Shown: positions 22,517 to 45,900, numbered from the stretch's first letter. The stretch: DNA of 64,000 nt from a virus (IMGVR_UViG_3300037424_002120:1-64000), one strand, 5' to 3'. The notes: generated by a model from the letters alone, not told the origin. A program made the numbers and translations.

Positions 22517-24127
22517 TTAAAACTCACTGCGCAGGAATGCACTCATTATCTCAGGAACAGCCGTGTCAAAGCCGCATACTTCAAGTGCTCTTTTATCATC
22601 AGGAGCATTATTAGTGACATGAGTCGCTGTCATCTGCACATTAACGATACGAGCTTCAGCATTGATTTGTCTTCTGTATGCTTCAAGTGCCTGTACAGGC
22701 TGCTGATGGCCTTGCCAAGTTTCACTATCCGACAAAATGACAAATGCATCAACTTCTAGTTTATTCTTTAGAGCATATTCCATTGGCAATGCAAGATTTG
22801 TACCACCACCACCGTATTGCTTCAAGATCTGCACAGCATCGTCAAGTCTTTGTTTTGGTGAAATGGGCAAACCATGTACTGATGTGTCAACACCTATTAT
22901 GTGGTAGTTACTCTCGCTATTTGCCAGAACCAAGGCCATGGCACCTGCTGCCGTATGCACTTCAAGATTTGGAATACCATTGACGGTGGCATTACGCATT
23001 GATCCGCTTGTGTCGATTGCCAGCAAGATGCGCTTACCCGTTGGCTCCACATTGTTAAATGCCAGATAGAATGCGTCATTTAACGCATCTACAATGTCCT
23101 GTACCGGAGTCCAAGTATTGCTGCCACGCACGCTCTTACCACTCTGATAGGTCGTTAATGCAGACAAGATCTTAATCGGATGTAATCGAGCCTTTAAGAT
23201 TGCATCTCGATTGCGTAGCCGCTCTGCAATCTGCCGTGTCATGTCACCCATCGGCAAGATCACACCTTCTCTGGTCATTGTTGCCAGATTGCGAGTCATG
23301 GCCTCCATTGGCATATCTTCAAGCAATGCTTCCCAGACACGCACTGAATGCAGGTATTGAGTCGGAACGGCCTCACGCGGCAATCTATACTCTTTGATCA
23401 GAGCCGCTACTTCCTTGTCATCGGCTGCACACTTGGCTTTCTCATATGCCCAGATAATCCTGAGTGCCTCATCAGAATGCGGTTCGTCTCCTACATTCTC
23501 CCAACCTTTGGTTACCCAGTGATACAGCGCATTGTATGTATCCGTTGTGGCCTTCGGGTGCGCAAGCCTCAATAAGTCTCTCTGGCTGTACCCATCCCTT
23601 TGCTGATATTTTAAAAGCTGATAAGCTAGGTTCTGCTCTTTGCGATCATTAAACCATGAGGCAACGGCACGTCTGTAAGCGCGGCCCCATCCTCTGAACT
23701 GCTTTGTGTAAGCGACAAAATGCAGCAAGTGTGTTCCTGTACGCGCTACTTGTGGAAGGATTGACAATGCATATTGGCGTATTTCTTGATCATCGGCGGC
23801 TGCACAACGAGCTAGAGCAAAAAGAGCAGGATCGTTTGAGGGTGCCCTGCCAGCTTTTGATATCTCAGCAATGGTGTTGACCACAGCCTTCCCCTGGCCC
23901 TCCTTCAACATGCGCTCTACTACATCTAAATTCTCTTTAACAAGCTTTCTCTCACCAACATAGTATGTTCCAGATTGTGCGCCTAATGTAACAAATCTAT
24001 GCAATCGCGTAATATCATCTACTGCGTAGCTGTACCCGCCTGCATTATTTAGAATCTGAGTAGAGCCAGGAATAGGCTCTGTTTGTGGTGTCGACTGCGA
24101 TCTTTTGCCAAAACCGAGATAATGCAT
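22517..24127 (-). CDS. rsr: Ro60/Rsr TROVE-vWA RNA-binding protein
   Basis: NNAGGY, RLHRFVTLG...TYY, KYQQRDGYSQRDLLRLAHP, MTRNL, LHP; vWA MIDAS DTSGSM; SDSETW; GFD. Confidence 0.95.
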   Translation of the reverse strand: MHYLGFGKRSQSTPQTEPIPGSTQILNNAGGYSYAVDDITRLHRFVTLGAQSGTYYVGERKLVKENLDVVERMLKEGQGKAVVNTIAEISKAGRAPSNDPALFALARCAAADDQEIRQYALSILPQVARTGTHLLHFVAYTKQFRGWGRAYRRAVASWFNDRKEQNLAYQLLKYQQRDGYSQRDLLRLAHPKATTDTYNALYHWVTKGWENVGDEPHSDEALRIIWAYEKAKCAADDKEVAALIKEYRLPREAVPTQYLHSVRVWEALLEDMPMEAMTRNLATMTREGVILPMGDMTRQIAERLRNRDAILKARLHPIKILSALTTYQSGKSVRGSNTWTPVQDIVDALNDAFYLAFNNVEPTGKRILLAIDTSGSMRNATVNGIPNLEVHTAAGAMALVLANSESNYHIIGVDTSVHGLPISPKQRLDDAVQILKQYGGGGTNLALPMEYALKNKLEVDAFVILSDSETWQGHQQPVQALEAYRRQINAEARIVNVQMTATHVTNNAPDDKRALEVCGFDTAVPEIMSAFLRSEF

Positions 24128-24152
24128 TGTCGTTTCCTTCTAGAAATAGAAG

Positions 24153-24217
24153 TGTCCTGAGCAATTTTGCGTTTACGGGTATATAAAGCAGATAACCATA
24201 AACATCGGCTCAGGACA
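24153..24217 (-). ncRNA. Minimal Y RNA (Ro-binding stem only)
   Basis: UGUCCUGAGC/GCUCAGGACA stem, CCGAU bulge, GUUUAUGG/CCGUAAAC stem, GGUUAUC motif; immediately upstream of rsr. Confidence 0.75.
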
Positions 24218-24229
24218 ATAATTCCGTAA

Positions 24230-24363
24230 TCTTGGATAAGCTGGTGTATCGGACTATTGCATTAGGCCACTCTGCCACTGATACAGGTTTCCCCGTACCG
24301 GTGGGATTCGAACCCACGAACCATTTTAACGGTGATAGGTAACCGATACTATCGACCCAAGAC
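24230..24363 (-). ncRNA. yrlA: YrlA-like Y RNA with a class II (Ser/Leu-like) tRNA-mimic domain
   Basis: UCUUGGGU/AUCCAAGA stem, GGUCGAU motif, GUAUCGG/CCGAUAC stem; T arm GUGGG-UUCGAAU-CCCAC precedes D arm GGCAGAGUGGCCUAAUGC (permuted order). Confidence 0.88.
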
Positions 24364-24379
24364 AAAATGATAAGACCTT

Positions 24380-24511
24380 TGAGATGGATAAAAGTAGGCA
24401 TTGGGTTAAGGTGCTCTACCAACTGAGCTACAATGAGTTACCCCATTGACAGGATTTGAACCTGCGACCACCCCGTTACAAGCGGTAACCAATACCAAGC
24501 GACCCAACTCA
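24380..24511 (-). ncRNA. yrlA: YrlA-like Y RNA with a class I tRNA-mimic domain
   Basis: GAGUUGGGU/AUCCAUCUC stem, GGUCG motif, GGUAUUGG/CCAAUGCC stem, T arm GCAGG-UUCAAAU-CCUGU, CAAUG/CAUUG capped acceptor stem, D arm GCUCAGUUGGUAGAGC. Confidence 0.88.
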
Positions 24512-24516
24512 CATGT

Positions 24517-24535
24517 ATTATACTAGCGCTGTCAA
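24517..24535 (-). promoter_or_regulatory. -10 element for the Y RNA/rsr operon
   Basis: TATAAT lies about 6 nt before the first Y RNA 5' end; TTGACA is only 7 nt upstream of it (non-canonical spacing). Confidence 0.55.
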
Positions 24536-24546
24536 CAGGAGGAAGC

Positions 24547-24626
24547 AAAAAGAAGTTGTCTGCCCGCGCTTTCGTCCCCCGTAGCTGCTCCTGTACACAG
24601 AGCGGCGGGCTGCTGCCACGATGGAC
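24547..24626 (-). ncRNA. Putative pseudoknotted small RNA or attenuator
   Basis: Own promoter TTGCCT-17-TATGAT (24659-24631); GUCC-AU-CGUGGC/GCUACG-GG-GGAC stem; internal GCCCGC pairs with 3' GCGGGC; U-tract follows. Confidence 0.55.
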
Positions 24627-24660
24627 TGCTATCATAGCACATTGCTATTTTTCAGGCAAC

Positions 24661-24727
24661 AAAAAGACCAGCCAATGCTCTCTTGGCTGGTCTCTTCGCA
24701 AGGCTCCGATGTACTGAAATATTACTA
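24661..24727 (-). ncRNA. Putative ~67-nt sRNA
   Basis: TTGACA-17-TACAAT (24761-24733); terminator AGACCAGCCAA/UUGGCUGGUCU plus U-tract; no ORF inside. Confidence 0.6.
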
Positions 24728-24762
24728 CAAGCATTGTACAGCCCATCGCAAAAAATGTCAAC

Positions 24763-24827
24763 AAGAAAGCCCGCCGTTGTGGGATAGCGGGCCTCTTGGG
24801 CATGGAGCTGGGGCTGGAAAGGTACTG
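24763..24827 (-). ncRNA. Putative ~65-nt C-rich sRNA
   Basis: TTGACA-17-TACAAT (24861-24833); terminator GCCCGC/GCGGGC plus UUUCUU; no convincing ORF within the unit. Confidence 0.6.
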
Positions 24828-24941
24828 GCCACATTGTACAGTTTGCCGCTTGCCTTGTCAAGTTGACGGCCTGTCGTACAATGCGAAGAGAGAGCGGGCT
24901 CGTACTTTAGTTTTGCAGGCCGTTAAACCCGCTCTCTTCTT

Positions 24942-32212: not shown

Positions 32213-33368
32213 ATGATGGAACTCCAAGACATACAGCAAGAGATGCAAAAGTGCAAAAAGTATGATCCAGCAAAAGCACACGTAAAAGCTGACGCGCTTC
32301 TGAGCGAACTGGCAACGCTACTAGCATCTCGTATCGATGTTGAAACGCAGCAAAAGACGCAACAGATTATACAGACTTACGATAAAATCAAGAAGTGGTA
32401 TGCTTAGCTGAAAGGATACACAGCCATGCACAGTTATGGAGGTCATCGGCAACATCTGGGAGCACCAAACCCTCCTAGACAGCACTGAGCAGCCCGACAA
32501 TACCCAGTAGTCAATGTTTGCACCTAGTTTTGTATTGCTCAGCAAAGAGGCTTTAGATTGCCGCTAGGTGCCAAAATCTCGGCAAAGTGCTCAGAAAATG
32601 CGAGAAAACACGGCAAAACATTTCAGTTTTTGCCGACAAGCCAGAAATCTGCGCAGTACTGCGCAAAATGTCACCAAAAGTACTATAATGCAGGCATGAT
32701 TTGGCAAAAGGCACACAGAATCGCGGGAAAACAGAATCGATTGCCGCCTAAAGCCAAGAAAAGAAAGGACACAACATGCAAAGCAAAACAGTAATGACAT
32801 TACAGTGCGCATTAACATTTCATCCACGAGTGATGTCATATGATGCAAATCATGAGACGCCTGCTTATGTTGTAATTGAGAGGTTTTACAGGCACTTTGG
32901 TGCTGATGTGCTGGACTCGTGCGTTTTTAGCCTGGCCGTCATTAGAGAAGGAAAACTAGAAGAGAGTATGATGTTCTTCAATTACGAAGAATTAGAGCAG
33001 GGATTGATAAAAAACGTGCACGGCGGGCGTGAGATCTCTCTCGGAGAGCATTGGACAGCAACTCAGTGAGAAAGGACATTGTGACAGAGAAGCAACGAAT
33101 AGCAGCAATTGACGCGCTTGCAGAAGAGTTGCTATTCCGATGGAAGAGAAGCACATTTTGTGGATATAGCACTGAGGCGAAAGAATGCCTCAGAACTCGT
33201 ACAATTAAACAGTTGCGTACACTACATGAGGATGGCAATCTCAATGCAAAAGATGTGTATGAGTTCTTGATTACAGGATATTGGCATAATGCCACAGAAG
33301 AACAGAAGTTGAAGTGTGAGAATGCAGTACAAGCGATGAAAGAAATTCTAAAAGAGGAGACAAATTAG
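32213..33368 (+). CDS. Small hypothetical genes (32213-32407, 32558-32794, 32776-33069, ~33081-33368)
   Basis: Co-oriented, some with GAAAGGAC SD sites; ends at a bidirectional terminator near 33372-33412. Confidence 0.55.
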
Positions 33369-33415
33369 CACAAAAGAGAGACTGCACCTCAACTACGAGA
33401 ATGCAGTCTCTTTAG

Positions 33416-33631
33416 CTAAATGCGGCTATCTAGGAACTCTTCAAGCTCTTTAAGAGAGCGAAAACCTTGTGACCTGCTCTCCAACACAGCATTATCGTCT
33501 GGAGAGACGAATGGCGCTATCCAGTATCGTGCTTCTTGCGGGTACTGGTGCCCAACATGGATATACTTCTGGGAACTATTTAGCCAGTTCCAGCCTGCAT
33601 TCTTCAATTTCGCGTTAATTTTGTCCTTCAC
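33416..33631 (-). CDS. Small hypothetical protein, last gene of the putative acr operon
   Basis: GTG start coupled to the upstream stop. Confidence 0.6.
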   Translation of the reverse strand: MKDKINAKLKNAGWNWLNSSQKYIHVGHQYPQEARYWIAPFVSPDDNAVLESRSQGFRSLKELEEFLDSRI

Positions 33632-34143
33632 TATGCCTTTTCTCCTCTATAGAGCACCAGATAAGCAGCTCTTAGCTTTTGCTGCATGCCAAGTATTTTT
33701 GTCACTGCATGGTCATCGGCCTGGGAGCCTCCGATTTGCTGATAGAAGAGACTTACATACTCCTGAGCTATCCCTATCCTACATCCGGTCATTTCGCTCA
33801 TCTCGCCAGCACTAGATGCTTGAGCAAAATCTAGATCATTGCTAGATGCTTCTAGAATACTAAAAAGAAGATTAAATGGCTCTTTAATGGCATAATCGCT
33901 AGGGACATCTCTACGATGAATACTAATGCGATGCTTAGCAGCAAATTGAGCCATCTCTTTGATCATGCCAATGTTGCCTTTGACACGAGATTGCCCAAGA
34001 TGTGCAGCATACCACGATTTGAATTGCTCAGATTGATCATCGAGCATTCCCGCTTCAGCAGAGAGTAAGCCAGCATTAATTGCTGAATAAATCGTTGAGG
34101 AGGTAATACCGTACTTACGGCTTACCTCATGCACTGAACGCAT
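33631..34143 (-). CDS. HTH fused to a Cas11d (Cas10d C-terminus)-like helical domain; candidate anti-CRISPR
   Basis: N-terminal HTH (VHEVSRKYGITSSTIYSAI); C-terminal S.YAI..P..LLF...EYV.LFY...KLRAAYL.LYR resembles the type I-D small subunit by eye. Confidence 0.5.
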   Translation of the reverse strand: MRSVHEVSRKYGITSSTIYSAINAGLLSAEAGMLDDQSEQFKSWYAAHLGQSRVKGNIGMIKEMAQFAAKHRISIHRRDVPSDYAIKEPFNLLFSILEASSNDLDFAQASSAGEMSEMTGCRIGIAQEYVSLFYQQIGGSQADDHAVTKILGMQQKLRAAYLVLYRGEKA

Positions 34144-34146
34144 TGC

Positions 34147-34701
34147 CTACCTCACTACCAATTCAAATGCAGACGCGCCTAAAATGCTAAAATTCATGAT
34201 GATGACTTCATCCATCCCAACGAAATAACCATCATATCCTTGAGATTGAAGATAAAGGCCGATGATAGCCCATCCCCAATCTGCAAGAAGATCGTCTTGA
34301 TTGCAGGTTTTCTGAAGCTTCTCAGAAGGCGCAAGACCTTCATCCGATAGCAACAGATATCCCTGTTCTAATCCCCATTGCCGAGCTGCTTGACTAGCTT
34401 CATCGGCCTGTTGATGCGTTGCCAGTTTTACCCCTGGCAACGATACTTTGACGACTGCAAGATGAAGCTCACTACCCCATCCATAAATTTTTTGCCCCCA
34501 ATCACGTGCATCCCTTTCGCTCCACGTGCAGCTAAAGCCTGAACCACCTTGACACCCGCCTTGGGTTCCAATCTGGTTTTGATCAAAACCAGATTGAAGG
34601 AGAGACTGAATATTCTCTTTGAGAGAGACATGATAGAATATATCTCCATCACGATACTCATTGATGTATTCCATATATTCTGCATATGGTACTCTTCGCA
34701 T
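34147..34701 (-). CDS. ADP-ribosyltransferase-fold protein
   Basis: FYH..., G.GFSCT, GYDGY...DEVII pattern of PARP/ART-like domains. Confidence 0.6.
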   Translation of the reverse strand: MRRVPYAEYMEYINEYRDGDIFYHVSLKENIQSLLQSGFDQNQIGTQGGCQGGSGFSCTWSERDARDWGQKIYGWGSELHLAVVKVSLPGVKLATHQQADEASQAARQWGLEQGYLLLSDEGLAPSEKLQKTCNQDDLLADWGWAIIGLYLQSQGYDGYFVGMDEVIIMNFSILGASAFELVVR

Positions 34702-34723
34702 AGCGCTGACTCCTCTTCGTTTA

Positions 34724-34778
34724 AATCGTGTACGATTACTATGATAGTAGTATAAATCAATCGTATACGATTTGTCAA
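34724..34778 (-). promoter_or_regulatory. Promoter with two palindromic operators
   Basis: TTGACA-18-TATACT; AATCGTATACGATT at 34759-34772 in the spacer and AATCGTGTACGATT at 34724-34737. Confidence 0.8.
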
Positions 34779-34891
34779 TACCTTTTCAAGCCTCTTTTCA
34801 GCATTCTCGTGTACTCGCTATTGCCTGTATTGCAGCATAGCAAAAGGCAAAAAGAAAGCCCGACTCTCGATTAAGAGACATCGGGCAATTG

Positions 34892-35098
34892 CTACTTTGG
34901 TGGCTCCCAATGACGCGGAAAACTCAAATGCACGGTCATCCTTGGGCCAGAGCCAGGCATGATGAGCTTGACGACCATTCTACCGCTTTCATCGCCACTA
35001 TCTTCTGGCTCTTGTTCAAACTCTAATTTGCGTGTGATGCCATCCACCATAACACCACTAAAGAACGATTCAATGTACTCTTGTGTTTTTTCGTCCAC
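34892..35098 (-). CDS. Small acidic hypothetical protein
   Basis: Follows the HD gene; terminator hairpin near 34850-34890. Confidence 0.5.
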   Translation of the reverse strand: MDEKTQEYIESFFSGVMVDGITRKLEFEQEPEDSGDESGRMVVKLIMPGSGPRMTVHLSFPRHWEPPK

Positions 35099-35114
35099 AA
35101 CGTTTTTTCTTATG

Positions 35115-35996
35115 CTAGTGAGCTTCTAACCACACAACAACATTATCAAACTCCTCAATTAGTCTTGCAACATTATACATGAAGTCGCTTCCTTGCGTAT
35201 TTGCATCCATAATATCGCTTATTCTACTTCTGAATGCATTTACTAACTCCCGATGAAACCACAGTGTGTTGGTTTTTTGCTCACTGACATCCCTGCCAGC
35301 CTTCTTGAAGATATTGTAGGCCTCATCGCCTTGCTCCTCTACAGAAGGCACAAGGTCATCCCGTGCACTTTGCAGCTTGTCGGCCACGGAGATCAGCAGA
35401 GCGCCGACAGAGACCTCACTGAGATGATTGAGATAGGCACGCTTCCGATCGAGCCAAGGTGCCTTCTCTTCGCCCCCTGGGCCTATCTCAGTGCATTCCT
35501 TCACGAGATCGAGGACTTCCTGGCCATAATCTCCGCATCCTTCTAAGATACGCCTCTCAGGGTCTCTTTGCGGCTGGTCCTCAAGAGCATCATGCAGCGC
35601 GGATGCTGTAATCATCGCCACAGATCCTCTTGCCATCTGGACCATGAGAGCAACCTTAGAGAGATGCTCTTCGAAGTAGGACTTCCCTGTCCTCTTGCGT
35701 ATCTGTCCCCTGTGCAGTTCTTCTGCAAGATCCATACCCATACTGGGAGGAAGATCCTTCCCAATCACCCAAATTCCTTTTTTATGATCAAAATCTATAC
35801 CCTTATCTACATGCCTATCTGCCCACTTCCTTGCAATATCTTCTCGTATTCTTTCATCATCGGAAGAAATTCTAGAAGACCAATTCTTATTCATATAAAC
35901 GAGCACATCTTGCTCGTTTAGCACTTGAGGAAAGGCCGCATTCATTTCCCGACTTATCGCTTGATACCTAGCTTCAAATTCTTTGCGTCCCATCAT
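35115..35996 (-). CDS. HD-domain hydrolase, RelA/SpoT hydrolase (SAH/Mesh1)-like, with an N-terminal extension
   Basis: HRGQIRK..G.SY..H..KVA, ALHDALED, ADKLQSARD. Confidence 0.85.
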   Translation of the reverse strand: MMGRKEFEARYQAISREMNAAFPQVLNEQDVLVYMNKNWSSRISSDDERIREDIARKWADRHVDKGIDFDHKKGIWVIGKDLPPSMGMDLAEELHRGQIRKRTGKSYFEEHLSKVALMVQMARGSVAMITASALHDALEDQPQRDPERRILEGCGDYGQEVLDLVKECTEIGPGGEEKAPWLDRKRAYLNHLSEVSVGALLISVADKLQSARDDLVPSVEEQGDEAYNIFKKAGRDVSEQKTNTLWFHRELVNAFRSRISDIMDANTQGSDFMYNVARLIEEFDNVVVWLEAH

Positions 35997-36260
35997 CAAA
36001 AATCCTTTCTGAGTACCATTCTGGGTGGTAATACTTGCCGTCCATTTCACGTGTATAAGGCCACACGTGGACCTCTCCACAGGGGGATACTTCTACATGT
36101 ACATTGTCCAGCTCGCAAACGCAATCCTCGCCAATGGATGGACTGCATTTGCAATCTGATATTATAACTCCGTCATGCAAAACTTCTTTCAAAACTTCTT
36201 TAGTATGGTTGTTCATGTTTTCCTCGTTGGTGATGTTCCATTTTTCCGATGGAACATCAC

Positions 36261-36674
36261 CAAACGTCCTTTCTGGATACCCCTGCCCTTTAGGCATGGG
36301 GAGGAATGAAAGCATCCCACAGGCTGGAAAATCGGTTGTATATCCTACGAGTTGTAGGAAGTGGTGGCTGACATTGTGAGTGCCACAACGGGCGTTACCC
36401 GTGCCACCATCAGCCAGTTACGGCGCACTGCTTGCGCAGGTAATGGTTGCCTCGACAAGGTTCAAAGCGGTTTAACGCTGCAAGCACTGGCACTAACCCT
36501 CGTCAGCCTGTTTAACCTGCAGCCGTAGAGCATCGGGCTGGCACGCACCCTATGGTACCTATTTCGCCATGAACGTAGTTTCTGTTTCAAAACTGAGTCT
36601 GGTCAGGTGAAACCGTTAGCAACCCGCGAGCGGATTACTGCAAGCCCCTGCCCTTTAGGCATGGGGTCCCTGAC
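36261..36674 (-). mobile_element. Non-autonomous IS200/IS605 (IscB-type) element, 414 bp
   Basis: Identical CCCCTGCCCTTTAGGCATGGGG hairpins at both ends; TCAC target on plus strand; ends TGAC; no nuclease ORF. Confidence 0.88.
36425..36674 (-). ncRNA. Standalone IscB omega-RNA (HEARO-like) scaffold
   Basis: GACCAGACUCAG...AACUACGUU...AUAGGUACC..GGGUGCGUGCCAGCCC..GCUCUACGG...UAAACAG...CAGUG...AAACC...AACCUUGUCGAGGCAACCAUUACC series of motifs. Confidence 0.85.
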
Positions 36675-36942
36675 ATTCTATTCGATTGCCTAGCACGCCA
36701 TGGGCTAATTTCATGGCCTTGTTGAGGCCTCTCAGCCAATCAGATCTTAGCTTGTCTGAATTTCTTGGACCATCTCCTGTCCAATTTTTGTTCATAAAAT
36801 CGAGTATCTCTTGCTCGAATTCATGAACTTCCTGAAATGCTTTCATTTTTGGGAAATTATTCATCAAACGTCCTTTCTTCTATCAAGCCTACAATTGGCT
36901 TGCGCCTGCCGATTACAGAGCAACCGGCAGAAACTAACCAAT

Positions 36943-37494
36943 CTACTGCACTCTCCACAGGCTAAACTTAATTGCTGCATTCTCTACCGTCTCGGCGCTG
37001 TGGACCTCACCCTCTGCAAGGCGAGGTAATTGCGCCTGAATGACAATCAGTTGATCACCGCTTTGGAGAGACACTTTCGGTGCTCTCTCTGGAATTGGAA
37101 GATCGATCCAGAATTTACGCTTGATGGCATCAATTGTTGATGCGTGTGATGGATTAAGAGCAGAAACTACATTAGACCCTTGCAGGGTTGTTCTTACTCT
37201 ATCATGATTGATAGAGGTTTTTACCATCGACGCCTCATCGGGAAACATTGTGTCTGATATTGCTAATGAAATGAATGTTGTCATTGGATTGACCTTTCTC
37301 TTTTGTCTATTTTGCTGGTACCGTGCGTACCAAGCAATGAAATCTGATTGATCAACTGCGTACATTCTGCCCCATGGGGACTTGTGAGCTTTCAGCCCCC
37401 ATGGCTTGCCTCTAAAGCCATCGCGTATCGCGTTATTGAGTACGTTGTGTGATATACCGTACTCAATAACATAAGCGGCTACAGGCCGCTCCAT
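36943..37494 (-). CDS. acrIII-1: HTH fused to an AcrIII-1 (DUF1874/STIV B116-like) ring nuclease
   Basis: From M71: ISLAISDTM...SHAST...SLQSGDQLIVIQ...RLAEGEV...IKF with the catalytic His retained; internal SD GAAAGG before the ATG at 37284. Confidence 0.8.
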   Translation of the reverse strand: MERPVAAYVIEYGISHNVLNNAIRDGFRGKPWGLKAHKSPWGRMYAVDQSDFIAWYARYQQNRQKRKVNPMTTFISLAISDTMFPDEASMVKTSINHDRVRTTLQGSNVVSALNPSHASTIDAIKRKFWIDLPIPERAPKVSLQSGDQLIVIQAQLPRLAEGEVHSAETVENAAIKFSLWRVQ

Positions 37495-37913
37495 TAAAAT
37501 CCCTCTGTTCTGGCCTTCTCAGAGGCCCTTTCTTTTGCTTTTAGGACGTTGCTCACAAGGCGCACACGACCTTTAAGGTCTGTTTGCCTGAGACCCACAT
37601 CAACGGTAGTCTCAAGGACCTCCTGGATGCTATCGACCTCGTAGACTTTGTGGAATTCAGATTTATCAGCTCCTCTAGGGCCTGTACGGCCCTTGCCGAT
37701 AATCTCAAAGCGCGTACCATCAGGAAGCTCGAAGATGGTTTCGACCCATGTCTTACTTTTGTCGTTGCTATCATACCATCGGGTATTCACGACGTTTTTC
37801 TTTACTTCGAACATCCTCTTCCCGTCATGTTCACCCCCAACAAATTTGGATACGACACTGGCAGAGCTGGTTGTGTGGCTCTCTGAGCCGGTTTCAATTA
37901 AAATTTTTGTCAT
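37494..37913 (-). CDS. Hypothetical protein, first gene of the acrIII-1 operon
   Basis: SD AGAAAGGA; stop overlaps the acrIII-1 start. Confidence 0.7.
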   Translation of the reverse strand: MTKILIETGSESHTTSSASVVSKFVGGEHDGKRMFEVKKNVVNTRWYDSNDKSKTWVETIFELPDGTRFEIIGKGRTGPRGADKSEFHKVYEVDSIQEVLETTVDVGLRQTDLKGRVRLVSNVLKAKERASEKARTEGF

Positions 37914-37929
37914 CAAACGTCCTTTCTGT

Positions 37930-37991
37930 GTTTGTAAGTCACTCAATCAACTTACAAACGAAGTATAGCTCCATTTGAGTGGAGTTGTCAA
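37930..37991 (-). promoter_or_regulatory. Promoter with an inverted repeat in the spacer and a 5' hairpin
   Basis: TTGACA-18-TATACT; CTCCA-N6-TGGAG in the spacer; GTTTGTAAGT/ACTTACAAAC hairpin just downstream. Confidence 0.75.
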
Positions 37992-38060
37992 TGATAAAAC
38001 GTGTATTTCATGCAACTTTTCGGAGCCTGTCAGACCCGTTATACACGTACGTTGCGGACA

Positions 38061-38100
38061 AAAAAAAAAAAGAGAGGTAGCCATCAACTACCTCTCTTTT
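38061..38100. terminator. Bidirectional intrinsic terminator
   Basis: A-tract, AGAGAGGTAG/CTACCTCTCT stem, T-tract. Confidence 0.8.
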
Positions 38101-38110
38101 ACTTCAAATG

Positions 38111-38851
38111 TTATTTGAAGTACTCATCTGCATGAATAAAATCAACACCAGCCGCCTTTGCAGCTTGCTCATCCTCATCACGGTCACCAACCATCAGCGT
38201 GTCCTCTGGGAGGATATCCGCGTCATTCATAGCCTCCCACAGCATCCCAGGACCTGGTTTACGCCTGTCGCTGTCTTCTCTGTATTGATCAAGAGAGGCT
38301 TTGGGATGGCTATAGCAGACATAGAGCCTGTCAGGATAGACACGAGCCTCTATGCACATCCTGGTCAGCTCATCCTGGATATCCTGAGATTTCATATATC
38401 CGAAAGCAACCCCACCTTGATTGGTGGCTATGGCGACGATTATTCCGCTATCGATCAAGGAATGGATCCTCTGAAGACGGCGTGGGAGCCACTTCCAGTC
38501 ATTGGCAGATTTACGGAATGTTTCACCGCTTTTGGTTCTAACTAAAGTACCATCTGCCTCAGATATGACCAGTTTGTACGTCTTCAAGCGTGTTGTTAAT
38601 CCCGTCGTTTCTGGAACTTTATACACATATTCACTCGGAGCCACGTACTTTGACCAGTTACTTTCCTGAAATTTTTGCATTCTCTGTTCCTTCGTTTTGT
38701 CTTGTTCTGCTCTTTTGGCAAATTCGATCAATTCTTTCGAGAAATTTGCCAAAAACCCCATTTGCTCTTGAGAAGACAATAATCTTAAATGCCCTGCCAT
38801 GACTTGAAGTATAGCATTAAGCTCCAAATCATCTGGGATGTCTTGTTGCAT
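38111..38851 (-). CDS. HAD-IIIA phosphatase (polynucleotide 3'-phosphatase/GmhB-like) with an N-terminal extension
   Basis: EADGTLVRTKSGETF...DW, TNQGGV, RRKPGPGML, MVGDR..D..AA..AG. Confidence 0.85.
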   Translation of the reverse strand: MQQDIPDDLELNAILQVMAGHLRLLSSQEQMGFLANFSKELIEFAKRAEQDKTKEQRMQKFQESNWSKYVAPSEYVYKVPETTGLTTRLKTYKLVISEADGTLVRTKSGETFRKSANDWKWLPRRLQRIHSLIDSGIIVAIATNQGGVAFGYMKSQDIQDELTRMCIEARVYPDRLYVCYSHPKASLDQYREDSDRRKPGPGMLWEAMNDADILPEDTLMVGDRDEDEQAAKAAGVDFIHADEYFK

Positions 38852-39170
38852 TGTGTTATCCTTTCTAATGATGCTCATCATGGATACATTCACCGTCCTT
38901 GAAAACACGATAGCTTCCTACACGCTCATCCACCGGAATACGTTCCAATTTATTTATGAACTGAAAACGAGACATGGTATTTGCTTTTGCTTCGTGATCA
39001 GGTTTAAACCCTTTTGCAGCTAAATCACTCAAAACGGATGAAACGTTCTTCTTATCGACAATGATTGAATGCTTGTACACTGTGTTGTCCTTTCTTTCCT
39101 CCTTGCAAGGGGTGCTATACAGGGAAGAAATCGTCGGGCGCTTCTTGCTCAGGAGTCAATTCTAAGTCAT

Positions 39171-39219
39171 CAAACGTCCTTTCTGGATACCCCTGCCCTT
39201 TAGGCATGGGGTCCCTGAC
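39171..39219. mobile_element. 49-bp solo-hairpin derivative of the IscB-type IS
   Basis: TCAT|CAAACGTCCTTTCTGGATA-hairpin-TCCCTGAC; left and right ends identical to the 36261-36674 element and fused at one hairpin. Confidence 0.85.
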
Positions 39220-39224
39220 GGTGT

Positions 39225-39512
39225 CTACCTTTCCTGGTCATCTAGATCAAGAGCGTCAATTGCCGCATCAACTCTTCTGACTTTGAGTGGGGCCTTTGAT
39301 GGCTCTTTCTCAATCTTCTTTATTGACTGTGGCTCATAATGGTGGACAGGAAGCGCTTGGCTAGAGGACTCTAGCCAAGCGATCACGATGTAACGGATAA
39401 CTTCTCCCCGTGTCGTTCCCATCTTAGAGCAGATGGCATCCAGTTTGATGAGGGCGTCTGAACCCTCATCAAACCAAGTGCTTACTCGTACTCTCCCTCG
39501 TTTAAGCGGCAT
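39225..39512 (-). CDS. RHH DNA-binding protein (ParR-like adaptor)
   Basis: RVSTWF...LDAICSKMGTTRGEVIRYIV; overlaps the parM stop. Confidence 0.7.
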   Translation of the reverse strand: MPLKRGRVRVSTWFDEGSDALIKLDAICSKMGTTRGEVIRYIVIAWLESSSQALPVHHYEPQSIKKIEKEPSKAPLKVRRVDAAIDALDLDDQER

Positions 39513-40587
39513 AAGTCACCTCCCATATAGTAGCCTTTCTACGTTGGAGAGAGGCGGCTATATCCGCATATCCAAGGGCATTAGCAATCTCTGGTCTGCT
39601 TACAACCTCCACTTTGTTGGTGTCAATGATCTTTCGAACAATCTCCTCAAAGTAGTAAGCACCACCCCCTGCAAGGAAAACACGGTCATACTGGGCGGCT
39701 ACTACTTCCCCGTCACTCGCAAGGTTCTGGCTAATAAAATTCCGAAGCGATCTGCCAGCTCTACGGATAGAGTCGGCTATAGTGCTTTCAATCTCACTCC
39801 CGTCTATACCGTAGGTGGTCGGACACGTGCGACTTTTAACATAAGATCTAAGCAAGCTATGAGATTTACGCTCAAGCCCAACCTTTCTCTTGACTCCAAA
39901 TGCTACCAAGTCATCAACAATCTGCCCGACTCCTAACTCAATCCCTACGCATTTATTGATCAATATTTTTTGTCCGTCTGCAACAATAAGATCAATAGTG
40001 CGCTCCCCGATATCAATAACAACCTGTTCATCATTGCTGTCACCACAGTGGATGAGTATTCCTTGTCCCTCAGTGGCCACATGCCCAACCTTTATAACAG
40101 CCTCTCGTGGCATGCCATTAAAAGTGAACTGATAGCGGTTCTCTAGAGAAGACTTAACTCTTTTTCTGTTCTCATTTGAATAAAGAGTAACAGGAAGAGC
40201 CGTTACGAGCCTTAACTCGAAAGACTGGTCAGGGATTAGAGTTGCTGCAAGCGTCAGTAAAAGGACTACAGAGTGCTCAGACCAATAACGATTTTGATCC
40301 CCTAAAGCAGCAGTTGCCCGACCTTTGATCCCCTCCCTCACAAGTTTACCTAAGTAGTAGTTTGTATCATTAAAGTTGAGAACATATTCATCGTCTTCAA
40401 TTACCTGTGAAAGATGAGGATCGTCCTCTTTACCGCGAGTAAGGAGCTTAACGATATCTCCTTCTGAAATGACAGAAGGGATTGTTTTGATATCCACGTC
40501 ACCATAAGATGTGGCAACTGCAAGCGTTGCATCTCCGCTTCCTGGGTCAAAACCTGCATAATAGACAGGTTTACGAGGACTGTACAT
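39502..40587 (-). CDS. parM: ParM/StbA-family actin-like ATPase
   Basis: GFDPGSG, LVTALP, EG.G, VIDIGERTID, LAGGGA, ANALGY actin-fold motifs; SD AAGGAG. Confidence 0.9.
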   Translation of the reverse strand: MYSPRKPVYYAGFDPGSGDATLAVATSYGDVDIKTIPSVISEGDIVKLLTRGKEDDPHLSQVIEDDEYVLNFNDTNYYLGKLVREGIKGRATAALGDQNRYWSEHSVVLLLTLAATLIPDQSFELRLVTALPVTLYSNENRKRVKSSLENRYQFTFNGMPREAVIKVGHVATEGQGILIHCGDSNDEQVVIDIGERTIDLIVADGQKILINKCVGIELGVGQIVDDLVAFGVKRKVGLERKSHSLLRSYVKSRTCPTTYGIDGSEIESTIADSIRRAGRSLRNFISQNLASDGEVVAAQYDRVFLAGGGAYYFEEIVRKIIDTNKVEVVSRPEIANALGYADIAASLQRRKATIWEVTYAA

Positions 40588-42942: not shown

Positions 42943-45900
42943 ATCCGATGTTCCTCCTCTCTTTTTTTTTGATATTGCACCAATAAGAACTTAATCATCA
43001 ATAAAAAACATTTTACAACCGTTGCTGCTCCTATTAACCAATTAATGATCTCTACTATAATGCCAAATATTGCAATAATAATGCTTATAATAGCTTGAAA
43101 TATCTGAAATATAGCGTTACTACATATAAATCCACCTGAAAATAATTCTGATATAATCGCTTCTTGCTCTTTATGAGCAGATAAATGATTAATCATGATT
43201 TTTGTCCTCCTGAGATATGGAATGGGCGGGATAAGCTTATCCCGCCCATGAACTTCCTGCTATACGCATATTCTTATGCTTGACATATCAAATTTATCAC
43301 CTGGAACAAGATGTCGCGCACTCCGCTGTAGTAGAGTGCGTGCGTCTTCGGTTGTCGCGCACTCTACTACAGCATCTCCCACCACCTCACCTTTCTCATT
43401 CACGATCAGAACTTTGAATTTCTTGTTGACTGTGCTCATTCTTATGCTCCTAACGCTGAATAAGATCAAGAGAAGCTTGCAGTAGAGCAAGAATTGGATG
43501 ATGCTCATCTTCATTGCTTTCGGTCGACGATTTCAACAAAACGCTCTCTATATCTCTCTCTCGGAGATGCTTTGTTACACAAAAAGTATTTACTGCCGTT
43601 TCCTGGTCATCGGCAAGCCACTCGTACCGCTTTCCTTTGACTGTGAAGATAAATCTTTGCGAATATGACCCCCTCTGGGGTGAAGGAATGTATTTTGCCA
43701 TCTTGATGTCCTTTCGTGCTAAAATGCACAGTAGCTAGCCGCCAATGAGCGAGCGAGCATGCGGTGATGAGAGGCGCTTTTCTAGGGCATTCCCTCTCAT
43801 CACTTCTTCTTCCAAGTTCTTTTACGCGTTAAATACCACATTACGGGAACGAACATAATAAGCGCGTACCACGCTAAACCGCTCATGCACTCTTCCCCTT
43901 GCAAGGGGTGAGGAAGTGCGACGCGGGCACTAATTGCTTGCAATCGGGGCACCGAACTGTGATAATCTTGCGCCCGATTGCAATGATACGCTTACTGTCT
44001 TTCTTTTGCATATTTACCTTTATACCTCTTTTCGTCCCTAAAGCGTTCGACATACGATGGTACGCGGTCAAACTGGCGTTGAGAAGACTGGATAAGCAGC
44101 TCTTCAGCGTGCTCATCGCAGATCCCGTGTGAATTATCCTCGTCAGAGCACCATGCACACGGCTCTTGTTTCGTCTTGATCATCAAGCGTCCTTTCTAAT
44201 GCGGGAAATGAGAAATTGACATAAAACACCTGCATAAACCGCAATAATAACCAGAAGTCTCATCATGGTCATTAAACGATTTGATATGCTCTCTCGACTT
44301 AAACGAGAAAGCCTTATTGTTTAAGTCTTTATTCCACTCCTCAGTTGATATAGAGTCGTCTGAATCATATGGTGCTGGTCTTCGTCCTAGCATGTTTTAC
44401 CTCTTTCTGTGGTGTGATGAAATGTAGCCGTAAAGGGACGGCCCGCCCACTAAAATTTTATCTACGGGATTTCAAATGATCTCTCATCTTCGCGATACGC
44501 TCTTGATGCATCTGTACTCCGATAGCATCGCTGTGATGCTCTGCTTCCTTCTTGAAGAACTCTTGCTCTTTTACGCGTTTTGCAAGAGTTTCGTCTGTTA
44601 GGAGGTGATCCTTGACGGTTGGGTATTTTTTCATTTGGGTTTCCTTACTGTATCAAGAGCCGCGCTTAATCCTTCGTGTACCTCTCGTGACTCTAGTGAG
44701 CCCGTTTCTGACAAAGTCCTGTTCGCCCTTCGCTCCATACGATTGAGTGTGCTCTCACTGAGAGTACCATTCTGTACTTTCTCTACGGCAGTATCATGGA
44801 TGTGGTCTTGTAAGTTTTTTGTCATGTTAACCTCTTTCTGCTCATTGAGCACTATTCGGGCATTTTTACCCGTTCCAGGTCGCTGCGATTGTAACGACCT
44901 GAGTCGATAAAAACACGCTACTTGCCGCACTTCATATGCTGCATTTGCAGGAATGCAAACTTGCTATTCTCTACGGAATAGAGATTAATCAAATCTACAA
45001 TAACACTTTTTAATTCGGCAATATGGGCCATGGCCTCTGGGTTGGTCGAAGTCTCATTAAGACCTCTTTTTGTGAACTTCTCTGAAGATACATTATACAT
45101 TGTATGTATCTCATCTAGCGTCTTACTCATGCAGCTTACTTATCCTAAAGTGCTGCGATACCTGCCTTCAGCTTGGCTATTTCTTTAGATATCTTTTCTC
45201 TGTCTTTTAGCCACGACTGCCTCTCATTAGGCCCCACGGAACTCTGCGCAAATCTGAATGTATCCGCGTGTTTTTGTTCCAATATGAGGATCTGTTTCGT
45301 TAATTCTTTTTGTGTTGGTAACATGGTTTCTCCTTTTGTGCTGTTTATCAACATTGTGTCGATAATTGGTGGCTGTAGCATGAACTACGCGCTGTCTTTA
45401 GCAGTGCCACCTTTACAAGCCGCACGACTTCAAGTCTGCTATACTTGTTGCGAGAGCTTCAATTCCAGAAAAATAGGGAGTTGAACATTGTAGCGTGGCA
45501 GTGCGTTAGCTGCTTCTTATCTCCGCTTCTCACCTGGAATATCTTATATTGTTTATGATCATTACTCAGCAAAACGATGCTTGCTGGCTATTTAACGCAC
45601 TACGAGAACTTTCCCATAATGAGCGACGAACATCTTGAGTGCTCCGAACGGCGGTCCGTTGTCGCTCTATGGACTATGCTGTTGCCCAACCTCGTGGTGA
45701 GATGTGGATATCAGCCTCCGCTCTCAAGCTAGAAAGAGCGGCAAGGATCTCGTCCTCAGTGAGAATACAATTCTTCCTGATGTCCTCCGAAAACGCTTCG
45801 TTGCCTTTGTCCTGGAGATATATAATGACCTCCAGTACTGTCACCTCATCGTCTGTCATCTGTCTTGTCATGTCTTTTTGCCTCTTCTTTACTTTACTTG

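Follow-up and report, generated by a model that had tools for sequence, protein, structure and literature searches.

Positions 33,416 to 37,991 of the viral sequence IMGVR_UViG_3300037424_002120:1-64000 raise the question of whether two neighbouring minus-strand operons, each containing a gene in which a helix-turn-helix (HTH) domain is fused to a small C-terminal domain, are self-regulated devices directed against the CRISPR systems of the host. The window, i.e., the whole stretch analysed, comprises 64,000 nucleotides (nt) and represents the initial 64 kb of a linear virus record in IMG/VR that is 95,482 bp long, with an estimated completeness of 87%. The analysis is computational and covers features of the sequence, homology searches, comparison with related loci, and a fold model for one of the HTH domains. 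A preliminary description of the window had proposed HTH-fusion operons resembling the association of anti-CRISPR (Acr) proteins with their Aca regulators, and this core idea is supported by MerR-like N-terminal domains (heads), CRISPR-related C-terminal domains (cargos), and conserved palindrome positions. The two fusion genes, H (36943–37494) and B (33631–34143), are strong anti-CRISPR candidates, with more confidence in H than in B.

The region comprises two transcription units, delimited by terminators located after position 38068, after gene D, and after gene A (Table 1). Unit 2 contains, in order and on the minus strand, promoter P2 followed by I, H, G, a HEARO element, F, E, and D, and unit 1, on the same strand, contains promoter P1 followed by C, B, and A. 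The order of promoter, first gene, and HTH-fusion gene, already read from each operon in the preliminary description, is found in both units, with neighbouring starts and stops overlapping or lying 3 nt apart.

Gene H, on the minus strand, comprises a winged-HTH head and a cargo that, judged by homology, is a member of the DUF1874/AcrIII-1 ring-nuclease family. The sequence of H matches phrog_5063 (E 2.8e-7), and about 70 stand-alone DUF1874 proteins of 112–114 amino acids (aa), most of which carry PF08960, are 52–83% identical to the cargo and start at the equivalent of M71 of H. In addition, a profile of the cargo family matches the PDB entries of AFV3-109, Csx1-Crn2, STIV B116, and SIRV1 gp29 (2j6b, 8y7f, 2j85, 2x4i). 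The catalytic histidine corresponds to residue 117 of H (H47 of SIRV1 gp29), does not vary among 17 sequences, and matches the histidine of AFV3-109 and Crn2 in the alignment; T50, Q83, R88, and E91 are also invariant in the alignment of the cargo family, and the invariant positions fit the catalytic and cyclic tetra-adenylate (cA4)-contact residues described for SIRV1 gp29 (bioRxiv 10.1101/778746). Five relatives of the cargo (P0065, P0072, P0073, P0074, and P0078) display DUF1874 with a fused C-terminal helical domain of ~125 aa; by eye, this domain also occurs as a separate open reading frame (ORF) in L003:6497–6874, and it has no family match.

The structural model of the H head (predicted local distance difference test score, pLDDT, 87.5) comprises a strand, two helices, a β-wing, and a long helix. 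The top 30 VIA-align matches are nearly all MerR-type DNA-binding domains or excisionases (Z 5–7.5, root-mean-square deviation 2–3.6 Å, 52–64 residues); besides excisionases, BldC and the DNA-binding domains of small terminases are among the closest folds. The consistency of these matches is informative and points to a MerR/excisionase-like winged HTH, an assignment to be treated with care at such scores. The head is not filed as a MerR regulator since it comprises 70 aa, ends in a single helix, and shares only the DNA-binding domain with that family; the long coiled-coil dimerization helix and the C-terminal effector-binding domain of MerR proteins are absent from the model. Searches with the head gave no match in Pfam, PHROGs, or NCBIfam, and a contig scan of genomes gave none either.

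Eight further loci carry the H head, with 63–84% identity, and the cargo located behind it changes from one locus to another, with at least six unrelated families represented: DUF1874 in this phage, a β-rich domain (phrog_30542) in one close relative, a domain rich in cysteine in two loci, and at least three more families. The preliminary description had recommended the HTH as a guilt-by-association query, and the H head indeed picks out all of these families, which occur also as separate downstream genes. In the 169 Ktedonobacteria genomes searched, the Cys-rich cargo was not found, and the β-rich cargo has matches in two, on short contigs.

The junction between head and cargo is the same in all nine loci, comprising CAAAAGAGAAAGG, a spacer of 8–9 nt, and an ATG. 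This ATG lies in frame with the head in six of them, resulting in a fusion, whereas in the other three a single extra base places it in the +1 frame, where it starts its own gene, with a cargo of the same family, and the reading frame of the head stops a few codons downstream. The conservation of CAAAAGAGAAAGG-N8/9-ATG indicates that the codons of the QKRK tail of the head double as the Shine-Dalgarno sequence of the cargo. The tail codons AAG AGA AAG display no synonymous change in the nine loci, most other conserved codons being variable; this invariance is modest evidence, given a small sample of related sequences. The second ATG of H at 37284 with its upstream AAAGG, pointed out earlier from the sequence, exists as AGAAAGG-N8-ATG, and as a start it is well supported, since the unfused relatives open a separate, overlapping gene at the same ATG, and the fusion retains its ribosome-binding site. 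A reasonable inference is that H yields both the head–nuclease fusion and the free nuclease.

Promoters P1 and P2 are the two best sigma-70-like sites within 33000–39600, both on the minus strand, and the earlier reading of each as TTGACA-18-TATACT with an inverted repeat in the spacer is confirmed. The phage contains about ten TTGACA-17/18-TATACT promoters, so that the promoter type is common and it is the palindromes that distinguish P1 and P2. These inverted repeats are present at the promoters of the head genes themselves, and their position is conserved across relatives. The P1 spacer contains O1, a perfect 14-bp palindrome, AATCGTATACGATT, and a near-identical second copy, O2, AATCGTACACGATT, follows just downstream of the −10 box; the pattern occurs twice in the whole window, as O1 and O2 only, against 0.14 occurrences expected. 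The P2 spacer contains IR1, which has the family consensus CTCCACTYRAGTGGAG and carries a mismatch in one arm in this phage; on its own IR1 is weak, with 0.27 occurrences expected by chance. A second inverted repeat, IR2, starts ~7 nt past the −10 box of P2, at about +1, and would be either a hairpin in the 5′ untranslated region (11 bp, −12.4 kcal/mol) or else a second operator. The layout of P2, IR1, and IR2 is conserved in seven other H-head loci, and the eighth (L010), cut at its 5′ side by the contig end, keeps only IR2.

A distant locus of the B family, on a Ktedonobacteraceae contig (L064, 1395–1440) from a metagenome-assembled genome (MAG), displays a promoter whose spacer, between TTGACT and ATGATA, consists entirely of a perfect 18-bp palindrome, ATCACACAATTGTGTGAT. 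It is followed by a small gene similar to C at its N-terminus (28 aligned columns, E 9.5e-4, probability 22%), a 72-aa gene, and a gene encoding an HTH–cargo fusion of the B family. The palindrome differs in sequence from O1 and occupies the same position, as would be expected of an operator that co-evolves with its regulator.

Gene B, on the minus strand, likewise comprises an HTH head and a cargo. Exhaustive HMMER searches with B retrieved six related cluster representatives only, five of which are full length with the same two domains and one of which is a head alone; one relative is annotated from a Ktedonobacteraceae MAG. The match of the B family to the Pfam MerR and HTH_17 families is weak (best, PF00376, E 0.001). 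In Ktedonobacteria, the B family has matches in 28 of 169 genomes, mostly to the cargo only, in open frames of 150–230 aa; one of the 28, the unpublished genome G146, enters this count and nothing else. At all seven host loci inspected, Cas7d/Csc2 (TIGR03157, E about 1e-80) follows immediately after this ORF, and in all four genomes tested the ORF itself immediately follows a ~900-aa Cas10d/Csc3 frame (TIGR03174, E 1e-13 to 1e-19). The B cargo and the small host protein are homologous in a profile–profile comparison (hhalign probability 99%, E 2.6e-18, 109 columns) and in BLASTP (E 6e-8), with about 30% identity, and the first methionine of the host protein aligns with M60 of B. In the type I-D system of Synechocystis, Cas11d is translated from within the 3′ end of cas10d (bioRxiv 10.1101/2020.04.18.045682), and the small host gene occupies the corresponding position relative to cas10d. 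This position suggests that B may mimic the small subunit of the type I-D Cascade. A contig scan of viruses with the relative P0089 gave no match, and an ESM Atlas search with B gave a best score of 0.86, too low to follow.

The first gene of unit 1, C, displays sub-threshold matches only, all of them to ADP-ribosyltransferases (ARTs): Tpt1 (E 0.6), Tox-ART-HYE1 (E 0.12), and PARP (E 0.085). In the ESM Atlas it resembles ART-PolyVal (0.94) and a cluster of AcrIF11-type ARTs (0.92), and the motifs YHVS, GGxGFS, and DEVVI are, by eye, conserved in six homologues. The assignment of C as an ADP-ribosyltransferase is a lead only. Neither the viral-contig scan nor the 169 Ktedonobacteria genomes gave a match to C.

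Among the genes of the window are those for a tape measure protein, an HK97-type capsid, a portal, a terminase, a Ro60/TROVE protein, a ParM-like partition ATPase, and a primase–helicase, a set that fits a siphovirus-type phage, probably with a plasmid-like temperate lifestyle. The TnpB encoded in the window is 81–88% identical to copies in MAGs of Ktedonobacteraceae and Ktedonobacterales, and two Ktedonobacteria MAGs contain 26 and 46 matches to the HEARO element, as well as further copies of the bounding hairpin on its own. The host is therefore probably a soil member of the Chloroflexota (Ktedonobacteria). A cyanobacterial host, apparently behind the earlier choice of type I-D as a target, finds no support and was rejected, TnpB and HEARO pointing to Ktedonobacteria instead. 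In five genomes of this clade, Cas10/Cmr2 is detected above the curated cut-off in two and at E ≤ 0.001 in four. One host type III-B locus comprises a CARF-GerE protein, a Cmr1-like RAMP, a Cas10 with palm2, and Cmr3, and another comprises Csx3, Cmr2/3, RAMPs, and a Card1-like nuclease; type I-D loci occur in many Ktedonobacteria genomes. Both presumed targets thus exist in the candidate host clade, which fits the suggestion made at the outset that type I-D and type III be used as test systems. In the type III-B locus of G001 (L062, 2–685), a CARF (Cas_NE0113) domain is fused to a GerE/LuxR HTH beside the Cmr genes, and this protein may be a transcription factor that responds to cyclic oligoadenylates.

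In the mechanism that we favour, with moderate confidence in its full form, the two units would be self-regulated counter-CRISPR operons; DNA binding, repression, dual translation, cA4 cleavage, and Cascade poisoning are the steps that we infer from the features above. The near-consensus promoters would fire without phage factors, the head would bind, as a dimer, the spacer palindrome and a second site at or just past the transcription start, and, once enough protein had accumulated, the head would shut down the operon in an Aca-like manner. In operon 2, the ribosome-binding site inside the last head codons, together with the own ATG of the cargo, would give two products, the fusion and the free nuclease, and the AcrIII-1-type domain would cleave the cA4 of the host type III-B system, so that its cA4-dependent effectors would stay silent. 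In operon 1, the B cargo would enter or bind the type I-D Cascade as a faulty small subunit, and the first gene, C, may encode an ADP-ribosyltransferase. A bolder version of this mechanism, possible and on balance doubtful, holds that (i) the head would mark an array of counter-CRISPR cassettes in Chloroflexota phages, (ii) its last codons would serve as the next ribosome-binding site, (iii) single-base changes in the spacer would toggle the cargo reversibly between separate and fused states, and (iv) the type I-D Cascade would have, in one of the cargos, its first inhibitor that acts as a Cas11d mimic.

Several observations weigh against the proposed counter-CRISPR operons. For H, the fold matches of the head all fall under Z 8 and hence under the safe level for a fold match, the sequence alone scores 24.6 bits against PF08960, just below the 26-bit cut-off, and a sample of 81 Ktedonobacteria genomes gave no match to H or its head. 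The stem of IR2 displays no covariation, being almost invariant with one A-to-G change that would keep a U-G pair in the RNA. A DUF1874 protein expressed late had no Acr effect in its native virus, and such a protein can have other targets (bioRxiv 10.1101/2023.01.10.523387); the location of H behind a near-consensus, apparently self-limited promoter suggests early expression. The host assignment itself rests on shared insertion sequence elements, not on spacers or a prophage. For B, the full-length model, built from two sequences, is unusable (pLDDT 44), and no link by sequence from the host gene to the solved Cas11d was found, three profiles giving no match in the PDB and NCBIfam giving none either, so that the name Cas11d rests on position. 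The HTH pattern that the preliminary description had read in both heads is present in both, though they resemble each other only weakly (BLASTP E 0.011; profile–profile probability 64%, E 6e-5), and the two heads are plausibly distant relatives. In the same way, the second ATG of B proposed there, at 33966, exists and is preceded by AAAGG-N10, but a methionine at the position of M60 is missing in P0089, P0090, and P0092; a second product from B is thus possible and is not supported as a trait of the family. With M60 not conserved and a cargo that never varies, being of a single family in all relatives, B could be a plain two-domain regulator.

An alternative for both genes is that H and B are ordinary early-gene regulators (of early or lysogeny control, MerR-like activators, or excisionase-like proteins), whose C-terminal domains serve dimerization, sensing, or unrelated functions. 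The abundance of the promoter type in this phage, the excisionases, terminase domains, and BldC among the closest folds of the H head, the constant C-terminal domain of B, and the non-Acr role of DUF1874 in SIRV2 (bioRxiv 10.1101/2023.01.10.523387) agree with it. Nevertheless, one cargo belongs to a ring-nuclease family and keeps an intact catalytic histidine, the other is homologous to the product of a Cascade gene, the cargos are also found as free-standing genes, and counter-defence loci typically combine a conserved head with rapidly exchanged cargos; ordinary regulators are therefore an unlikely explanation, albeit the one among the alternatives to which we give most weight.

An explanation of operon 1 that we consider distinctly improbable is a toxin–antitoxin-like or effector–immunity pair, in which C would be an ART toxin and B its DNA-binding antidote, repressing via O1 and O2. 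The sub-threshold ART signals in C are compatible with such a pair, as is the resemblance of the gene order, the overlaps, and the doubled promoter palindrome to type II modules, and the B homologue in the Ktedonobacteraceae MAG lies behind a gene similar to C at the N-terminus. However, no co-occurrence of C and B homologues emerged beyond one weak case, cluster look-ups found no contigs shared by the two, and the C-terminal domain of B is homologous to a Cascade-locus protein and to no antitoxin family. Finally, the fused and unfused forms of the head genes differ by one base within an A-rich stretch, as would be expected if the in-frame fusions were assembly errors in A-rich spacers and the true genes were separate, as in the three unfused loci. 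Yet fusions occur in six independent assemblies with differing spacers and cargos, and those of the B family in six distinct proteins (B, P0089, P0090, P0091, P0092, and P0093), which makes assembly error very hard to credit.

Besides the two fusion genes, the region encodes several small proteins and an RNA element (Table 1). The stop of gene I overlaps the start of the head gene in every locus that has I. No match to I was found in Pfam, PHROGs, NCBIfam, the phage collection (tblastn), or the 169 Ktedonobacteria genomes, and no recognizable family was found for I, A, D, F, or G. In one related locus (L009, 2411–3001), gene I is longer by an N-terminal segment of ~57 aa, which indicates that the first gene of the module can likewise be extended or fused. 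Gene G, described previously as a split gene at 36864, is intact and is paralogous to the N-terminus of E over 29 aa (E 3e-4). The 365-nt HEARO element has a copy of one hairpin on either side, and the stop codon of G falls within the loop of this hairpin, so that the ORF is the same with or without the insertion. The proposal that G and gene D (34892–35098) are Acr candidates fared no better: both are located past a conserved hairpin, and nothing links them to defence; for membership of D, G, or F in the module no evidence was found. Gene E resembles a small alarmone hydrolase and may be another counter-defence enzyme. Antisense ORF translations read by eye suggest that the hairpin sequence after H is also located behind the fusion gene in L002 and L003.

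Table 1. Positions, in window coordinates, of the features of the two transcription units.
Feature	Position	Strand	Basis
Promoter P2, TTGACA-18-TATACT	37962–37991	−	11/12 matches; same layout in 7 related loci
IR1, CTCCA-N6-TGGAG in P2 spacer, putative operator of H head	37969–37984	.	sequence and family
IR2, GTAAGT-N10-ACTTAC	37934–37955	−	0 expected
Gene I, 139 aa from ATG 37913	37494–37913	−	first gene in 6/9 head loci, 83–89% identity
H head, 70-aa MerR/excisionase-like winged HTH (putative)	37285–37494	−	model, fold search; 63–84% identity in 8 loci
Junction, AGAAAGG (QKRK-tail codons) + 8 nt + ATG (M71), internal cargo start	37282–37299	−	9-locus comparison
H cargo, DUF1874/AcrIII-1-family ring nuclease domain, 113 aa	36943–37284	−	homology
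Strong hairpin after H, no U tract	36893–36943	−	fold
Gene G, 69 aa, intact, stop codon in hairpin loop	36655–36864	−	ORF, comparison with E
ORF-less HEARO (IscB-type omega-RNA) element, ~365 nt	36302–36674	−	Rfam RF02033
Gene E, 293 aa from ATG 35996, RelA/SpoT-type HD hydrolase	35115–35996	−	PF13328 1.2e-10; TIGR00691 hydrolase region 2.3e-7
Intrinsic terminator, end of upstream unit (after D)	34848–34886	−	fold
Promoter P1, TTGACA-18-TATACT	34749–34778	−	11/12 matches
O1, perfect 14-bp palindrome in P1 spacer	34759–34772	.	pattern search
O2, near-identical second copy, downstream of P1 −10	34724–34737	.	pattern search
Gene C, 184 aa, possible ADP-ribosyltransferase fold	34147–34701	−	sub-threshold matches
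B head, MerR/HTH_17-like HTH	33967–34143	−	profile searches
B cargo from M60 (ATG 33966), homologue of small protein at cas10d–cas7d intergenic position	33631–33966	−	hhalign
Gene A, 71 aa, GTG start overlapping B stop	33416–33631	−	ORF, library searches
Intrinsic terminator, end of unit 1	33368–33412	−	fold

The HEARO element, within 36281–36674, covers the full Rfam model (RF02033, positions 1–211) with 132.4 bits against a threshold of 83, and it is bounded by direct copies of 21–22 nt of one hairpin (repeat family D1), of which a third, solo copy, together with the following 24 nt, is located at 39167–39211. A translation-initiation 17-mer, AGAAAGGACGTTTGATG, occurs at 35994–36010, 36258–36274, 36862–36878, 37911–37927, 39168–39184, and 44181–44197, three of the six copies being exact against 0.03 expected; the cassette junctions of related loci likewise read ..GAAGAAAGG-N8-ATG. 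The region from 33.4 to 38.0 kb is flanked by an IS200/IS605 element (TnpB and TnpA, 30.2–31.9 kb) and by genes for a HAD-type 3′-phosphatase and for partition (par). The former of these genes (38111–38908), which encodes a HAD-IIIA/polynucleotide 3′-phosphatase-like protein, lies directly upstream of P2, an order kept in the close relative L002, and may have a role in RNA repair or counter-defence. Within 22517–24861, two more promoters, of the form TTGACA-17-TACAAT, are located near the Ro60/TROVE gene, at 24761 and 24861.

To our knowledge, no anti-CRISPR is known for Chloroflexota, and very few are known for type I-D or type III systems. The locus would represent a new form of Acr–Aca fusion. 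AcrIIA13–15 share an N-terminal HTH head that binds inverted repeats in the promoter and represses it (PMC7104187); together with AcrIIA1, they resemble H in the combination of a conserved HTH head, divergent C-terminal domains (putative inhibitors in the case of H), and two promoter inverted repeats, and their heads, like that of H, are usable as guilt-by-association probes. On the other hand, the H head represents another fold class, a MerR/excisionase-like winged helix without a Pfam match, the host phylum is probably Chloroflexota, and the predicted targets are type III signalling and probably type I-D rather than Cas9. Furthermore, the loci compared here include fused as well as unfused states, only 1 nt apart, with the ribosome-binding site within the head. 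Compared to AcrIII-1 and Crn2 (SIRV1 gp29 and Csx1-Crn2), the H cargo shows the same family, catalytic histidine, cA4-contact positions, and free form of ~113 aa, but it is fused to an N-terminal DNA-binding head and its histidine motif is NPSH rather than GH. A literature search for DUF1874 combined with HTH found no papers.

As to B, viral homologues of Cascade subunits are known to inhibit type I-B systems, namely AcrIB3 and AcrIB4, the latter a homologue of the C-terminus (last 90 residues) of Cas8b (bioRxiv 10.1101/2023.06.24.545427). B is likewise a phage gene outside a cas locus that is homologous to a Cascade component; in contrast, it relates to type I-D, is fused to an HTH, and shows ~30% identity to the host copies, with inhibition only predicted. 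AcrID1 (SIRV3 gp02), which binds the large subunit and inhibits archaeal Cas10d (PMC7689449), would have the type I-D target in common with B, as far as predicted for the latter, but is an unrelated archaeal-virus protein and not a Cas homologue. The layout of P2 recalls the operons of Aca1 and Aca2, which display an inverted repeat in the promoter and a hairpin after the transcription start (PMC13551039): in both cases the promoter is overlapped by an operator, a putative one in P2, and between the transcription start and the first gene there is, directly past the former, an inverted repeat of ~20 nt. The regulator nevertheless belongs to another family here, is encoded second in the operon, and is fused to the cargo, and RNA binding by it is putative.

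Taken by homology and position, new features of the locus would thus comprise (i) the head family, (ii) the host phylum, (iii) an AcrIII-1 domain fused to a regulator, and (iv) a phage homologue of a putative type I-D small subunit; fused and unfused states one base apart, directly seen among the related loci, are new as well. The conserved head and the promoter palindrome together provide a search handle, which in related phages flags as candidates at least six families of small cargos. The relatives with and without the fusion offer a concrete account of how Acr–Aca fusions originate and of why one gene may give two products. The authors of AcrIIA13–15 left the origin of such fusions open (PMC7104187); if the head does mark an array of exchangeable cassettes, this would answer how one aca becomes fused to many acrs, and, if small-subunit mimicry by B is true, the idea of a viral cas gene as an inhibitor would be extended from type I-B to type I-D.

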